Part shown: positions 825 to 9,037 of the stretch, piece after piece
Numbering within the stretch: the stretch's first letter is position 1
Layout: every line of letters begins with the position of its first letter
NCBI GenBank assembly: GCA_000004985.1
Contig: GG738889.1
From: Naegleria gruberi
Lineage: Eukaryota
Length of the DNA stretch: 64,000 nucleotides
Strand: one strand, 5' to 3'
Notes under the pieces: model-generated
The model's input: only the letters and a program-made list of their open reading frames with translations
Databases searched by the model: none
Told to the model about the DNA's origin: nothing
Translations under genes and position numbers: made by a program

Positions 825-1980
<1,156 letters not shown>

Positions 1981-2152
1981 TTTTTATTCTTTCAATTTTT
2001 ATTTTCTTCAAAGAATATGATGAATAATTTCATTTTCAATTATTGTTGAATGATGGTTGTTGGAGAGAATCTTTTGACAATGGATGATGCGAATCTTTGC
2101 TTTTTATCATGATTTCAATAAGTTTATTCAATAATTTTATAGAGATGTTGTT

Positions 2153-3256
2153 TCACAGTAGAATCATTCTAGATTTACTGATCACTTCTGTTGGGTGATG
2201 AATTACATGATTACTTGTTGCATTAGTTGATGTGTTACAAATTGTAGTTAGAGTTGTCGTATTATTGTGGCTGGTAATTGAGGTAACCTTATTTTCCATC
2301 AAGAGAGTTTTAAGATTCTTGCCTTGCATTTGAGCAATTTCCTTAGAATTGAAGTTAGAGAATCCCTTTGCAATTATCTTTCTACTGTTACAATCTCGAA
2401 TAGTAACAATGTCATCCCTTTCAAACTCGCCAATTAACTTGGTTATTCCACAAGCAAGAAGATTTTTACATCTTTGTGAAAGTGCAGAGGTGGCTCCTTG
2501 ATCAACCAGAATACTACCTTTTTCTTCACCTTTTCTTAATACCTCCAGAATGGAACAATTCATTGGATAATGCGATTCGAGAGCTCTCACATGATGAACC
2601 AGAGTGTCCACATAATGGTCCGATACAGGTAGGTATTCCTGTAACCTGTAGAGGTAATCTCTGTTTGGACCTGAATGGCCAAAAGCTCTCGCAATATGTT
2701 TTGATGAACAACAGATATTCTCTGGACCAATGAATGGACACTTCTTTGGCTGTTCTCTATTTACAAACGGATCAAAATAATAAACTATGGCATTCTGACA
2801 AACTGCAATCGTATCAGAAACGTAAACCTTAACACTGGTTTTCTGATAACCAGCAACCAATTCTCTATAATCTAAATCTTTCATCACTCGCTCAGCATTC
2901 TCAAATGATACCTTATAACAAGTTCCCCAAACTATTTCCTCGTCCATATCTTCACTTTTGGAATTGATATCATGTTGTAAAGATGATTTGTGAGCAAAAT
3001 TTTGATATTGACAAGAACAAATAGGCTTATTAGATTTTTCTTTCAGTACTTTCTGATAATCATTTTCTCTGATGATTGTAAGCGTTCTTCCTTCTTGATT
3101 TGGTTGTCCTCTATGGAATAAATCCTCCAACCAGAATCTTCTTCTGAATCCTTTGATAAAACCACTAAAAGAACTTTCATATTCAAATCCCGGCCTCCAA
3201 ATAACAGACCCATAGGCAAAGATAAACAACGGAGCATCAATATCACCCATACACAT
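2153..3256 (-). CDS. ChaC-like gamma-glutamylcyclotransferase with C-terminal PUA domain (fusion)
   Basis: The N-terminal half contains FIFAYGSVIW...RRRFW...RTLTIIRE and a conserved YRE glutamate, typical of the ChaC/GGCT fold. The C-terminal ILVDQGATSALSQRCKNLLACGITKLIGEFERDDIVTIRD...SKEIAQMQGK resembles the PUA domain found at the C-terminus of glutamate-5-kinase. It is a single continuous 367-aa ORF starting at ATG. Confidence 0.7.
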   Translation of the reverse strand: MCMGDIDAPLFIFAYGSVIWRPGFEYESSFSGFIKGFRRRFWLEDLFHRGQPNQEGRTLTIIRENDYQKVLKEKSNKPICSCQYQNFAHKSSLQHDINSKSEDMDEEIVWGTCYKVSFENAERVMKDLDYRELVAGYQKTSVKVYVSDTIAVCQNAIVYYFDPFVNREQPKKCPFIGPENICCSSKHIARAFGHSGPNRDYLYRLQEYLPVSDHYVDTLVHHVRALESHYPMNCSILEVLRKGEEKGSILVDQGATSALSQRCKNLLACGITKLIGEFERDDIVTIRDCNSRKIIAKGFSNFNSKEIAQMQGKNLKTLLMENKVTSITSHNNTTTLTTICNTSTNATSNHVIHHPTEVISKSRMILL

Positions 3257-3565
3257 GATGTTGCACTATTAATATATTGCTGGAGAGAAGTTGATCCTTT
3301 TTTTCGGTTTGAATTGTCTACTTATGATACTCATCGAAATGCATTTCCAAGCTTGCTTCAATTTCCATGGAAAAAGTCTAGACTAGGAACGGAAATATGG
3401 ATTTTCCAACTTGCTGTTTTTTTGAAGTAAAGAGATGTTTTCATAATGGAAGATTCACTCCTCATAACATTAAATACATTCTCCTTAAGTCCTCCTAAGG
3501 CAATTTTATTCTTTTAAATACCAAGTCAACATGTTTGTAATTTTATTAATTCTCAATTATTTAAA

Positions 3566-5122
3566 ATGTCTTCAAATCTTCCATGTGCAGAGATTATTTT
3601 GGAGGCTTGCAAAAAATTGAGTCACATTCTTGGTTCAAGCTTTGGTCCACTTGCTTTTCATAAATTAATTATTAATTATCATCACCATGTATTTTCGGAT
3701 GTAATTTATTCAAATGATGGAGCAACAATTATGGATTCACTTCCGATTGTTAATCCTATCGGAAGAATTTTATGTGATTTATCAAAATCTCAGGAGGAAC
3801 AAGCTGGAGATGGTACAACTGGTGTTGTTTTATTGTGTTGTGAATTGGTTAGAAATTGCTTGGAGGAATTACATTTAAAACAATTAATACCTTTGGATGT
3901 GATTTGCAGTAATTTATCTACTTTGAAAAATGTATGCAAAGAGACTTTTCTGACTATAATGCAGAGAGACAGGGTCATGATGCAACAATTTGTTACAAAT
4001 AATTGTGAAATTATTAATTTTATATGTAAAAATTCATTACAATCTAAGGAATTGAGATTTCATATTGAACATTTTAAAAGCATTTTAACTGAAGGATTTT
4101 CTAATGGAAATTCCATTCCTAAACATACTAAATTTCATATTATTGAGGGTGGCCAATTGAATGACAGTTTTGGATTTAACGGAATTTTTATGAATATTTC
4201 ACAATCTTCATTCTCAAAGAGATACGCCTATTCTAGTAGTTATTTGGATAAATTATCCAAGTGTAGATCAATATTATTGCTAAAGAGGCAAAATTTAGAA
4301 ATGAATCAAAAAGAAAAGCTATTTTGGAGAAGTTTATTTGAATTGGGAACCAGTAGTAGTGGAATAATAATTTTGATGGAGGGAGCATTCCCTTTTCATG
4401 ATATATTTTATAGTTCAGATTCTAATGTGCTGATATTTGATAAATTAAGCTCGAAACATTTGCAAAATATATCACATTCTCTAAATCTACCTTCAATTAT
4501 CCCAGTTGGATCAACCACCACAGTCGAGAATGAGGATCTCTATATTTTCGAGTCTTCTCCTAATTTTTCAATTTTTCAAAACGAGATTTTCATAACTATT
4601 CCTAATGTTTGTGACTTTTTTAATATTATTATTCGAGGGCCTTCCAATACTATTAATGAGGAATCCAAGAGGTCAATTAAGGATGCCTTCTATGTAATTA
4701 AAGGGTTTATCAATGAAAACAACTTTTTCAGTGCTTCCAATACATCAGAATTATGTGGAGGAGGATGTCACATTGAAATGAGTATATGGAGAGATGTCAG
4801 CAATTCCTCAGTACTGTCCAAAGGAATTTCAACAATATTTGCTGATAGCTTCTTATCAATAGTGAGATTTTTATTGCACTCGAGTGGATTCAAACATGAT
4901 TCAGAAATGATAATTTTACGATTGGCAAGTGAATATTCTAAAAATCCAAACTCTTTCTTTGGTATTGATCTTACCAATCAAGATTCACAAACTCCAATAA
5001 TTTCCAACATTATAGAAGCTCATATCATTGAAAATCTCAGAGTCAAGAAAATAATGATCGAGTTGGCCATTGAAACAGCCATAAATCTACTCAGAATCAA
5101 ATCAATTGATTTTACCAATTAA
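3566..5122 (+). CDS. divergent TCP-1/cpn60 (group II chaperonin, CCT-like) family protein
   Basis: The 518-aa ORF retains the LGP...NDGATI...GDGTT...GGG(C)xE signature spacing of the CCT apical and equatorial ATP-binding motifs. It is otherwise highly diverged from canonical CCT subunits. Confidence 0.55.
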   Translation: MSSNLPCAEIILEACKKLSHILGSSFGPLAFHKLIINYHHHVFSDVIYSNDGATIMDSLPIVNPIGRILCDLSKSQEEQAGDGTTGVVLLCCELVRNCLEELHLKQLIPLDVICSNLSTLKNVCKETFLTIMQRDRVMMQQFVTNNCEIINFICKNSLQSKELRFHIEHFKSILTEGFSNGNSIPKHTKFHIIEGGQLNDSFGFNGIFMNISQSSFSKRYAYSSSYLDKLSKCRSILLLKRQNLEMNQKEKLFWRSLFELGTSSSGIIILMEGAFPFHDIFYSSDSNVLIFDKLSSKHLQNISHSLNLPSIIPVGSTTTVENEDLYIFESSPNFSIFQNEIFITIPNVCDFFNIIIRGPSNTINEESKRSIKDAFYVIKGFINENNFFSASNTSELCGGGCHIEMSIWRDVSNSSVLSKGISTIFADSFLSIVRFLLHSSGFKHDSEMIILRLASEYSKNPNSFFGIDLTNQDSQTPIISNIIEAHIIENLRVKKIMIELAIETAINLLRIKSIDFTN

Positions 5123-5243
5123 ACAACAAGCTTTAAAATTGCTTCTAACAAAGGCAAGAAGTGTTTGGCGCCAAAAATTTAAAAAAAATAACCAAACAAC
5201 AATCTCACACAAAGGCTTGCATTCGCTGTTGGTGAAGTTGAAA

Positions 5244-6557
5244 ATGTCGTCATCGAAGCAACAAGAGACTAACAATACGGAACAAACACAACAACAAATG
5301 GAAACACAACAACAATATGATAATCAAGAGGAAGTTGAAATAGATGAGAGATCTTTGAAATGTAATGCTTTTATCATTGAATATATACTTTATAAAAAAG
5401 TTGATTATCTTGTAGAGGATTTGTTAAGAGAACTCCCATATGATCGCGATAATGTTAATCTTAGAACTAGATTAATTATAAGTCAATTGAATGGATTGTG
5501 GGAAGAAGTTGAACAGGAAGATAAAGTTGATGGTGATAGAATCGGATTTATTGTTAGTTCTGTGACTGCTTTACTAGGATTACTTGATGAGAGAAAACAA
5601 ACTTTTGCAGAATTTTTCCAAGAAGCAACCTTCTCCGCAGATGCTTATTCTAAAAAGATCAAGAAATGGTTGACCTCTTTCATTAATGCTGACACATATG
5701 AACTCAAATATCAATCACTTGAGGCTCTTGTCAAATATTTCAATATACTAGGAAATTATCTTGGTGAACCTAAGCTTTATTCATTGCTGAATCAACCAAA
5801 ACAAATCCAGGAGGAAACACAATCTAATGATGCTGTAATGAATGAACCACAAATACCACAAATCACTGTTGATTCACTTCCAGACGAGCCATGTACATAT
5901 TTAGGGCTTAAAAACACAGGAATTTCAACATCAGAAGAAACTACAATCTTTATAACAGAAAGACTTTTTAACGCTAGGAAACCATCAAAACCAATACCTC
6001 AGGTACCTGAGAAAGCACCAAGACAAGAAGAGCTTACTCAGCAACCTACTCAGCAAGTTGTTGCAGCCTCTACTCAATCTAATCAAGATGAACAAGCCAA
6101 GAAGAGAAAACCTACTGCTAATGCCAATAATTTAAAAAAGAAGAGGTTAATGGATAGTCAAAAGGATGCTAAAAGAGTTGTAATTATTAGGGAATTTGCT
6201 TCTTCTGAAGATGATGAAGATATTCCTATTACTCGTGCTTCTAAGCTACAAAGACCAAGATCTAAATCAGATACAAATGGTAAATCCAAGAAGAAATCTG
6301 TTTTTGAGGATTCTTCCAGTAGTGAAGAAGAAACTGAACGAGTTCTTTTCAAGCCACGTAAAAAATCAAAAGATACCAAGCAAAAGAAAGTATTTTGGAC
6401 TGATGATGAAGTTAACGCCTTACTTAAAGGTTTCAAGATGTATGGAACTCAGTGGGCAAGAATTTTAGCAGAATTCAAAAAGACTTTCCATCCCAACAGA
6501 GATAGTCTTAGTCTTCGTGACAAATACAGAAATATGGAAAAGTATGGTCAAATTTAA
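5244..6557 (+). CDS. Myb/SANT telobox-domain protein (TRF/Taz1/Tbf1-like putative telomeric dsDNA-binding factor)
   Basis: The C-terminus is WTDDEVNALLKGFKMYGTQWARILAEF...RDSLSLRDKYRNMEKYG, matching a single Myb repeat with the telobox LKDKWRN-type ending. The N-terminal region is helical. The first in-frame ATG is at 5244, which is the MSSSKQQ start, whereas the track ORF starts at an upstream non-ATG. Confidence 0.55.
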   Translation: MSSSKQQETNNTEQTQQQMETQQQYDNQEEVEIDERSLKCNAFIIEYILYKKVDYLVEDLLRELPYDRDNVNLRTRLIISQLNGLWEEVEQEDKVDGDRIGFIVSSVTALLGLLDERKQTFAEFFQEATFSADAYSKKIKKWLTSFINADTYELKYQSLEALVKYFNILGNYLGEPKLYSLLNQPKQIQEETQSNDAVMNEPQIPQITVDSLPDEPCTYLGLKNTGISTSEETTIFITERLFNARKPSKPIPQVPEKAPRQEELTQQPTQQVVAASTQSNQDEQAKKRKPTANANNLKKKRLMDSQKDAKRVVIIREFASSEDDEDIPITRASKLQRPRSKSDTNGKSKKKSVFEDSSSSEEETERVLFKPRKKSKDTKQKKVFWTDDEVNALLKGFKMYGTQWARILAEFKKTFHPNRDSLSLRDKYRNMEKYGQI

Positions 6558-6578: not shown

Positions 6579-9037
6579 TTATTCTTCGTCATCGATAACA
6601 ATAGCATCTTCATCCTCTTCCTCTACTTTTTTCTTTGATCTTGATGAGCTTGCTTTCTTTGGTTTTTCTTCAGTTTTCTTTGGTCTTCCTCTTCTCTTTG
6701 GTTGTTCTTCTTCCTCTTCGTCTTCATCTACATCTAATGCTTTGAACTTGGCTTTCTTTGAAGCTGCTGCCTTTCCTCTTGTTTTCTTTGGCTTTTCTTC
6801 CTCTTCATCACTTTCGTTCTTCTTTCTTTTAGCTCCTCTCTTTTTTGGTTTTTCTTCCTCTTCATCACTGGCAACCTTCTTTTTTCTTCCTCTTGTCGTC
6901 TTTTTTGGTTTCTCTTCCGCAGCTTCTTCGTCGCTTACAACCTTCTTTTTTCTTCCTCTGGTTGTTTTCTTTGGTATCTCTTCTTCCTCTTCTTCACTTT
7001 CATTTTTCTTCTTTCTGCTTGTAGGTTTCTTCTTTTCGACAATTTCCTCTTCCTCAAGAATATCCTCTTCATCAGATTTGTCCTCAGATTTTGAAGCCTT
7101 AGAGAGCCTGTCAGACATTATTTTATCCTTATCCAAGTTCTCTTTGCTTTCTTCTCTATACTTTTGTAAATATTTCTCCAAATCAGATTCAGAAATGTCT
7201 TGATTGGCAAATTGTTTGAGATCAGACCACAATTTCTTTTGTTTTGACTTGATATCACTAGCAACAAAGTCATCAATGGCATGAGCTTCTTCCTTATCTA
7301 CAAAGTCAACAACAGAGTTTTGGAATTCAAATTCATTCAATACTAATAAACCATTAATATTAGTTTTTTTGGTGGATGTCTCTTTCAGGAAATGTGAAAC
7401 TAAATCTTCAATCTTGATACCATCAGTAAGAGCATCACTTGCAGCATCTGCAAATAGCTCACTATTATTATCATTATTCAAAATTGCATTAAGTAATTGT
7501 TCTTTGGATTTCTTTTTCTTACTCTTCTTTTTTCCCTTTTCCTCTTCAACTTCTTCATCCTCTTCCATGTTGTCCTCTTCCTTTGATGCCTTTTTCCTTG
7601 ATAATAAAAGCAAATCTGATGGGTTGGCAATCTTTCCAACAAAGTTTTGACCAAATCTTTGAGGATTGACAGTGGCATAACCACCACTGTAATCTACTCT
7701 GAGTCTGATAATTGGTAGATCTAATCCAGGATATTTCTTATAGTAGGCTTTGAGTTCTTTAATTGCTTCTTCATCCCCTTCAAAATTACTTAGTTTGTCT
7801 TCCTTAGCTTGTTTAATTAATTGATTTACGTGTTCTTTAAGGAAATCAGCAATTTCGTCTGGATTGTTCTTAATATGTTTCAAATCTTGTTCAAAATCAG
7901 AGAGAGAAATTGAATCAAATACGTAAGGTCTTACAGTTTTCAATGTAATTGGAATAACTCTGAATGAATCTTTGTAAATTTCCAAGATGGCAACCTTTTT
8001 TGGCTTAGCTTCTTGGTGTGTGTATGTAGTAGAAATAGAACTACCTGGTTGCATTACTTCAAATCCACCAGTAGCACTTTTTGTTGGAGTGATTTGTTGT
8101 TCATGTTCATGACCCCACACTACTAGATCAAAAAATCCTTTCAGCATACTTTCACTAATATTTCCTTTCTTTGTGTGATGTTGATTTCTATTTTGGTGAA
8201 TGGTCATCAAATTAAACCATTCATTTGAACCTTGACTATCTTCACCACTTGGTCTAAAGAATGTCACTTTCTGATTTTTAAATGTTTGATATAAACGTTC
8301 GTCTCTTATATAACCAAGTCCATAAAGTGCAAGTTTAGTTTCTCCTTTTTGTACTAAAATAGGTTTAACTTGAATATTATCCACAGTTTCACACTTTCCG
8401 AAATAATTTATCAAATTACATTGTGCAAGAACATCCAAAACACTGAGACTATTCTCTCCAGACCAAGCATCATGATTACCTAATGTTTTAATCATTGTCA
8501 TATAAATTATGAAAACTCATAAAATACAAACTTACCACTGATTGCAAAAATTGGAAGAGAAATATTAACATTAGGATCTTCATAATTTACAGTTCCTTCA
8601 GGATTTGATTTGAAATTTACAGATTGATCACTTAAAATTTGCAAAGGAACAGGCTTGTCACCAAAAACATATTTTCTCAGAATTGATATTGTCTTGTGAA
8701 GAGTATCACGAGAAGGCTTGTTATCATGGAAAAGATCACCTCCCTGTAACACAAAATCTACATTATATTTGTGACCATATTGAATAATCTCCTCAAAGAT
8801 GATAAAAGAGTCATCCTTTCTAACTGTATCACGTTCCAAGTATCCAACATGATTATCCGTTGTTATTAAAACTCTGAGAACATCCTTTTCATCAACATCT
8901 TGCTCATTAACACCACTTGATCCTTCTTCAACAGGTTTAATTCCTCCCTCTTCATCATCAACATAACTACGCTGTGATGAGAGACGGAAATTAGAGGCTT
9001 GTGAAGCTCCACTCTGTGTCCTAGGCATATTGTTCAA
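6579..9037 (-). CDS. MRE11: MRE11 double-strand break repair nuclease. Two exons at about 9037..8536 and 8479..6579.
   Basis: Exon 1 has phosphoesterase motifs I-III (TDNHVGY, GGDLFHDNKPSR) and ends ...PIFAISG with a GTAAGT donor. A 56-bp intron ends in CATTAG. Exon 2 begins NHDAWSG (motif IV, GNHD) and continues through the MRE11 capping domain. The long K/E-rich C-terminal tail carries basic repeats. Confidence 0.9.
6745..7060. repeat. imperfect tandem repeats (about 60-66 bp units) encoding the K/E-rich AT-hook-like tail of MRE11
   Basis: A repeated tcttcc/ttttttgg motif on the plus strand corresponds to reiterated EEKPKKTTRGRKKKV[A/V]SDEE peptides, plus one KRRGRPKK unit. Confidence 0.5.

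Follow-up and report, generated by a model that had tools for sequence, protein, structure and literature searches.

A ChaC-type gamma-glutamylcyclotransferase fused to a ProB-type PUA domain in Naegleria gruberi

The window analysed here, a stretch of 64,000 nucleotides from contig GG738889.1 of Naegleria gruberi (Discoba, Heterolobosea; assembly GCA_000004985.1), harbors a gene that joins a ChaC/gamma-glutamylcyclotransferase (GGCT) domain to a PUA domain of the type found in glutamate 5-kinase (G5K; ProB). This ChaC-PUA gene is a genuine single gene. Its product is best described as a standard ChaC enzyme core with an appended standard ProB-type PUA domain, and the combination is functionally uncharacterised. 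With a probability of roughly 60%, we read the protein as an active glutathione-specific enzyme in which the PUA domain serves as an assembly or activity module. A first-pass annotation, made from the letters of the DNA without database searches, had located an uninterrupted open reading frame (ORF) with these two domains at positions 2153..3256. The position, the architecture and the single ORF of 367 amino acids all stand, and the strand, which had been left unstated, is the minus strand. The frame contains zero stop codons across 1101 nt, and an in-frame TAG located four codons upstream of the ATG defines the N-terminus as MCMGD.

The product is 100% identical to the NCBI entry "ChaC and PUA domain-containing protein [Naegleria gruberi]", and the combination of the two domains is hence already present in public annotation. 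The earlier suggestion of a non-standard architecture thus holds in so far as the fusion is uncommon, but it is not undiscovered. Full-text searches retrieved no literature describing a ChaC-PUA protein, and they likewise yielded no relevant work on ChaC or gamma-glutamylcyclotransferase in Naegleria or on ChaC in Dictyostelium. Our claim is a modest one, given that the architecture is visible in public annotation and that the enzymatic core is conventional. The features of the gene and its product are as follows.

3266..3268, minus strand: in-frame TAG upstream of the ATG, from the DNA sequence
2153..3256, minus strand: complete ChaC-PUA coding sequence, 367 codons plus TGA
3251..3256, minus strand: Met1-Cys2, start of a flexible N-terminal tail
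2582..3226, minus strand: ChaC/gamma-glutamylcyclotransferase catalytic domain, residues 11-225 (Pfam PF04752)
3203..3214, minus strand: YGSV (Y15-V18), YGSL-type substrate-binding motif of the GGCT fold
3086..3115, minus strand: H48-R49-G50 ... G56-R57, invariant in 21 ChaC-PUA proteins
2936..3064, minus strand: insert of 43 amino acids (residues 65-107) that includes CSCQYQN
2861..2863, minus strand: GAA codon of Glu132, the predicted catalytic glutamate
2651..2680, minus strand: GHSGPNRDYL (residues 193-202), conserved C-terminal motif of the ChaC domain
2519..2650, minus strand: helical linker, residues 203-246
2315..2518, minus strand: PUA core of the ProB type, residues 247-314
2189..2290, minus strand: Thr/Asn/Ser-rich low-complexity loop inside the PUA module, residues 323-356
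2156..2188, minus strand: EVISKSRMILL (residues 357-367), equivalent of the last ProB strand, which completes the PUA module

Composition of the ChaC and PUA halves

The N-terminal half matches the Pfam family PF04752 with E=9.9e-38 and 130.4 bits (cut-off 21), and positions 2-175 of the 176 profile positions are covered. A sequence search of solved structures retrieved human ChaC2 (6K95, 6KY0, 6KY1; E ~1e-16) and yeast GCG1 (5HWI, 5HWK). Structural comparison was based on an AlphaFold2 (AF2) model that was calculated from an alignment of 21 ChaC-PUA sequences and reached a mean predicted local distance difference test (pLDDT) score of 81.7 and a predicted template-modelling (pTM) score of 0.76. 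A Foldseek search with the ChaC half of this model recovered 6ky1_A at E=6.6e-17 with a target-normalised TM-score of 0.85; GCG1 and the GGCT structures 2rbh and 3cry were matched as well, documenting the GGCT fold of the model. Profile hidden Markov model (HMM), sequence matches to solved structures and predicted fold thus agree on a complete ChaC/GGCT catalytic domain, as had been proposed. The motifs quoted in support of the initial assignment were all recovered, namely FAYGSVIW (with Y15-V18), FRRRFW, DLDYRE (with E132) and ILVDQGATSALSQRCKNLLACGITKLIGEFERDDIVTIRD.

The hallmark of the GGCT fold is a YGSL motif in combination with a catalytic Glu, which is Glu98 in GGCT, and the catalytic Glu of yeast ChaC, GGCT, GGACT and ChaC1 has its strictly conserved counterpart in Glu83 of ChaC2 (PMC7022552). 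Both elements are present in the N. gruberi protein. Its Glu132 aligns with human ChaC2 Glu83, and the register is unambiguous because the alignment contains a row for the E83Q mutant 6KY1. The likeness to human CHAC2 and yeast GCG1 further comprises the YGS(L/V), HRG…PGR and GPSGxNxxYL motifs. The mean column identity of the 21 aligned ChaC-PUA proteins is only about 26%, yet H48, R49, G50, G56, R57, G111, R131, E132, Y137 and G193 are invariant. Within the C-terminal motif GxSGPNxDYL, S195, G196, N198, D200, Y201 and L202 are each conserved to at least 90%. The invariance of catalytic-domain residues in such a divergent set argues for purifying selection that maintains an active enzyme rather than for a pseudoenzyme.

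Human CHAC2 and yeast GCG1 are single-domain proteins of ~180-240 amino acids, whereas the N. gruberi protein carries an additional ProB-type PUA module of ~120 amino acids. It also differs from them by the 43-amino-acid insert, by a conserved Met-Cys tail and by Arg123 at the position of ChaC2 Glu74. The insert (residues 65-107) is confined to Naegleria and Willaertia, has a motif of the form CSCQ(Y/H)QN and is modelled poorly, with pLDDT values <50 at residues 89-101. Its conservation at the protein level among Naegleria species indicates coding sequence rather than an intron. An interpretation of the low-complexity inserts as unspliced introns was rejected, since both are in frame and the conserved ProB-like C-terminus resumes after the second one.

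The C-terminal half matches PF01472 with E=8.6e-14 and 51.7 bits (cut-off 24.8) over positions 1-66 of the 74 profile positions. Among the NCBIfam models, TIGR01027 (proB) fits the module best, with a match to positions 266-347 of 363, and is followed by TIGR00451 and arCOG04150, which are models of archaeal stand-alone PUA or putative RNA-binding proteins and cover residues 236-318. In the sequence comparison with solved structures, residues 245-314 retrieved only glutamate 5-kinases (E. coli 2J5T and 8ZPJ; Burkholderia 4Q1T). The AF2 model exhibits the PUA fold with strands at residues 247-251, 271-275, 283-288, 294-299 and 364-366 and helices at residues 253-262 and 304-310. In the Foldseek search the PUA of G5K ranked first among the named matches (E=2e-8), above the archaeal proteins APE0525 (1ZS7/2CX0) and Ta1423-like 1Q7H and above Cbf5, Nip7 and NSun6. 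The latter proteins share the PUA fold at weaker E-values of 1e-5 to 1e-2; they function in RNA modification or ribosome biogenesis, their binding to RNA has been documented or is presumed, and in no case is the PUA domain attached to a GGCT-fold enzyme. Profile HMM, sequence matches in the PDB and predicted fold concur in assigning the module to the PUA type of glutamate 5-kinase, and the caveat raised at first pass, that the C-terminal region might not be a PUA domain, was not borne out by Pfam or Foldseek.

The relationship with ProB extends to the very end of the protein. A PUA-only profile recovers C-terminal fragments of bacterial ProB that carry the label glutamate 5-kinase and in one case include the kinase domain, and the ~96 C-terminal residues (trimmed alignment columns) of the N. 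gruberi protein are colinear with the PUA of ProB (E. coli 2J5T, 8ZPJ; TIGR01027), including the final strand. This strand reads "EVIHRdNlvL" in ProB and "EVISKSRMILL" in N. gruberi, and the terminal "HR" of ProB corresponds to "SK" in the core ChaC-PUA clade, i.e., the non-pelagophyte sequences (see below). The in-frame conservation of these last 11 residues shows that the frame runs uninterrupted through to its end. Just ahead of the strand lies the low-complexity loop of residues 323-356, which varies in length between species, is in frame and has mostly pLDDT values <50. Judged from the sequence, the whole ProB PUA domain is present with the same C-terminal end and is interrupted by this loop in N. 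gruberi. The linker between the two halves is predicted to be helical (residues 198-208, 214-226 and 236-242), and the pTM score suggests that the ChaC and PUA domains might pack on each other.

The possibility that the protein is a G5K or a remnant of one was rejected. A Pfam scan of the N. gruberi protein gave no match to the amino-acid-kinase domain PF00696, and only the PUA module is shared. The score for TIGR01027 amounts to 57.3 bits in comparison with a cut-off of 186.

Distribution and origin of the fusion

When 1.84 billion representatives were searched exhaustively with HMMER, 2130 matches were obtained at E <=0.001. For 154 proteins, comprising 150 among the matches listed and homologues from a word-indexed search, the scan was repeated with each half separately. 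ChaC followed by PUA in the same order was found in 22 of these 154 proteins, representing at least 22 clusters at 50% identity, and order and frame are kept down to 28% identity. The word-indexed search had provided eight matches with the single protein and 32 with a profile, and it missed the dictyostelids. All named ChaC-PUA members are eukaryotic, and the architecture occurs in at least three eukaryotic supergroups. It is present in the heteroloboseans N. gruberi, N. lovaniensis, N. fowleri and Willaertia magna, in the dictyostelids Tieghemostelium lacteum, Dictyostelium purpureum and Synstelium polycarpum, and in the Pelagophyceae with Pelagomonas calceolata and a marine cluster of 95 members (pelagophyte set P0024 and P0176-P0178, from P. 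calceolata and marine metagenomes). The first-pass proposal to search "other amoebozoan" genomes had thus misplaced the host, which belongs to the Heterolobosea; dictyostelid amoebozoans nevertheless carry the fusion.

Two members are complete ORFs in transcriptome assemblies (MMETSP, TRINITY) and provide direct evidence for a continuous transcript in relatives of the N. gruberi gene. The neighbours of one further relative are LRR-PP2C, DUF547 and Arf genes and hence document a eukaryotic context. Two separate genes or a frame-changing intron had been named at the outset as findings that would overturn the single-gene interpretation. The single-ORF architecture of about 22 divergent clusters, transcriptome ORFs included, points the other way, and its recurrence in relatives together with the in-frame ProB-like C-terminus excludes both alternatives.

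The origin of the fusion was addressed with neighbour-joining trees that were built separately for ChaC and PUA, with a core clade defined as the 19 non-pelagophyte sequences. In the ChaC tree, the point estimate recovers the core clade except that one ChaC-only sequence falls inside it (bootstrap value 17/100), the pelagophyte clade is maximally supported (100/100), and the two are never united (0/100). In the PUA tree, the core clade is monophyletic in the point estimate (67/200), the pelagophytes are recovered in 197/200 replicates and both groups together in 19/200. The mean distance of the pelagophyte PUA domains is 1.20 to bacterial ProB PUAs versus 1.63 to the core PUAs, and the pelagophyte proteins are also distinguished by an N-terminal extension of ~100 amino acids. 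The pelagophyte ChaC-PUA may accordingly represent a second, independent fusion, a reading that has to be seen against the weak support for the core clade, and their separation could also reflect a compositional artefact of Ala-/GC-rich sequences.

A second feature with a characteristic distribution is the Met-Cys N-terminus. A Met-Cys start, or an internal MC at the same column, is found in 15 of the 18 complete ChaC-PUA lineages versus three of 144 ChaC-only proteins. It is kept in the core clade, where examples are MCMGD, MCQDF and MCEDM, located 9-12 residues ahead of the YGS motif; the pelagophyte group is without it. Residues 1-4 of the N. gruberi protein have pLDDT values <50, and the protein thus exhibits a Met-Cys N-terminus on an accessible tail, as expected for substrates of the Cys/Arg N-degron pathway. 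This tail could function as a Cys N-degron, be acylated or provide a redox-sensitive thiol.

Proposed function and alternative readings

The N. gruberi protein is most likely a cytosolic glutathione-specific gamma-glutamylcyclotransferase, predicted to be active from its conserved sequence features. The ChaC half would convert glutathione to 5-oxoproline and Cys-Gly, with the substrate assigned by transfer from the family; YGSV would hold the gamma-glutamyl moiety, and Glu132 would act as general acid/base. The presence of glutathione has been reported for N. fowleri (Ondarza 2006, cited in PMC8296547). The helical linker would couple this enzyme to the complete C-terminal ProB PUA module, which most likely stands outside catalysis. 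By analogy with E. coli G5K, the PUA is probably a protein-protein module that affects quaternary state, activity or the docking of a partner.

Several grounds favour a role of the PUA in assembly or regulation, for which we see a little less than an even chance. Deletion of the PUA from G5K leaves catalysis and proline inhibition intact, but the higher oligomers are lost (PMC6099280). Cryo-electron microscopy showed that the PUA of G5K is needed for filaments and bundles and stabilises a regulatory loop (bioRxiv 10.1101/2024.09.19.614007), although its function has still been described as "not well understood" (PMC11573504). For ChaC enzymes, the oligomeric state has been proposed to tune activity, with ChaC1 forming dimers or tetramers and ChaC2 being mainly monomeric (PMC7022552). 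Finally, the PUA module is near neutral across the family, with net charges from -4 to +5, and its near-invariant positions are mostly Gly, Ala or hydrophobic residues, i.e., structural ones.

Four observations weigh against this interpretation of the protein. The interfaces of E. coli G5K involve the amino-acid-kinase domain, which has no counterpart in ChaC-PUA. The surfaces that the PUA contacts in G5K filaments are therefore absent, and the analogy is not transferable residue by residue. The counterpart of ChaC2 Glu74, which has been reported as important for activity, is Arg123 with Glu122 adjacent to it, a change that we treat as a minor difference between the aligned sequences. PUA is classically an RNA-binding fold, and in most other contexts PUA domains bind RNA. 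Weak specific RNA binding has also been described for E. coli ProB itself (PMC10380284).

The latter two points lead to the strongest competing explanation, in which the PUA is an RNA-binding module that tethers glutathione degradation to RNA or a ribonucleoprotein (tRNA, rRNA or mRNA; for example for localisation or for feedback on translation), or makes the enzyme a moonlighting RNA-binding regulator. The matches of TIGR00451 and arCOG04150 ("putative RNA-binding protein") and the weaker Foldseek matches to archaeal PUA proteins, Cbf5, Nip7 and NSun6 are in line with this idea. A tktA antisense RNA fragment was enriched with and specifically bound by E. coli ProB, but the interaction was weak (Kd far above 10 uM), and the authors were doubtful that it matters biologically (PMC10380284). 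The net charges within the family lack a strong basic character, the near-invariant positions are structural, and the roles that have been shown for the G5K-type PUA are protein-protein ones. RNA binding by the PUA is thus ranked below the assembly or regulatory role, and we regard it as unlikely.

A more far-reaching scenario is one that we consider a long shot. The ProB-type PUA would be a portable control module of gamma-glutamyl/5-oxoproline enzymes that ChaC has captured more than once, as the separation of the pelagophyte proteins in both trees might suggest, thereby coupling glutathione breakdown to a signal. ChaC and G5K are unrelated enzymes, but the chemistry of both concerns gamma-glutamyl groups and ends in 5-oxoproline; one example is the structure 2J5V, whose title names G5K with glutamyl-5-phosphate and pyroglutamate. 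Were the portable-module scenario true, the signal might be a metabolite (proline, glutamate or 5-oxoproline), RNA or regulated filament self-assembly, and the Met-Cys of the core clade would add redox- or oxygen-dependent turnover via the Cys N-degron pathway.

The proposal that the ChaC half acts on a substrate other than free glutathione is less probable still. Candidates would be trypanothione/glutathionylspermidine, gamma-Glu-Cys or a macromolecule with gamma-glutamyl groups that the PUA would select. N. fowleri has been reported to contain trypanothione besides glutathione (PMC8296547), the lineage-specific insert of residues 65-107 lies beside the loop that gates the active site of ChaC2, and Arg123 replaces ChaC2 Glu74. 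However, the characterised ChaC enzymes are glutathione-specific (PMC7022552). The insert, moreover, is missing from most ChaC-PUA members. To our knowledge, trypanothione synthesis has not been reported for dictyostelids or pelagophytes, which also counts against a different substrate.

The explanation of the fusion as an annotation or assembly artefact, i.e., neighbouring ChaC and small PUA genes or a missed intron, can draw on the introns of Naegleria genes such as the adjoining PRMT1 and on the mis-merging of gene models at this locus in N. fowleri, but it is effectively refuted by the stop-free frame, the recurrence of order and frame across at least 22 clusters with transcript ORFs among them, the in-frame match of the last 11 residues to the C-terminal ProB strand and the confidently predicted helices of the linker.

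ChaC-PUA offers an independent second enzyme context in which the role of the G5K-type PUA can be tested. The hosts include culturable Naegleria species and genetically tractable dictyostelids. If the preferred assembly or activity reading is true, ChaC-PUA would combine ChaC catalysis with a regulatory domain of its own and perhaps with an N-terminus that is itself subject to regulation. The known control of ChaC activity is otherwise mainly transcriptional, as for CHAC1.

Genomic neighbourhood and the merged gene models of N. fowleri

The neighbours of the ChaC-PUA gene are ordinary eukaryotic housekeeping genes without operon-like logic.

825..~1980, minus strand: type I protein arginine methyltransferase (PRMT1), next gene downstream in the same orientation, with introns
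3566..5122, plus strand: TCP-1/cpn60-family gene, divergently transcribed
5106..6557, plus strand: Myb-domain protein with a long acidic/Ser-rich region
6579..8501, minus strand: Mre11 homologue whose Lys/Glu-rich C-terminal tail is very long

The PRMT1 gene consists of exon pieces at ~1912..1980, 1668..1850 and 825..1598 and accordingly contains at least two introns. It is orthologous to the PRMT1 of N. fowleri, for which the structures 6CU3 and 8DUR are available. The head-to-tail order of ChaC-PUA and PRMT1 is conserved across Naegleria. N. fowleri, a lethal pathogen, carries an orthologue of ChaC-PUA whose gene model is currently merged with PRMT1: two independent annotations fuse the proteins, namely KAF0974487.1 (666 amino acids) and CAG4716980.1 (706 amino acids). 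At the junction of the merged protein, "…SRMILL" is directly followed by "DRLLAEKMSQQQ…". In the N. fowleri locus (L004 2230..2370), the predicted intron has a donor-like GTAAGT site that overlaps with the TAA stop codon. The counterpart in N. gruberi is CTGTGAAAC, which has no such donor, and a spacer of ~170 nt (window 1980..2155, minus strand) separates it from PRMT1. ChaC-PUA and PRMT1 are annotated as two separate gene models in N. lovaniensis. The merge in N. fowleri is probably an annotation artefact; the alternative would be a real read-through splice over the stop codon.

The remaining neighbours show peculiarities of their own. The TCP-1/cpn60-family product is divergent, with a strong Pfam match confined to residues 18-216. 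The ORF of the Mre11 homologue begins inside the phosphoesterase domain, and its 5' exon or exons must therefore lie upstream of an intron.

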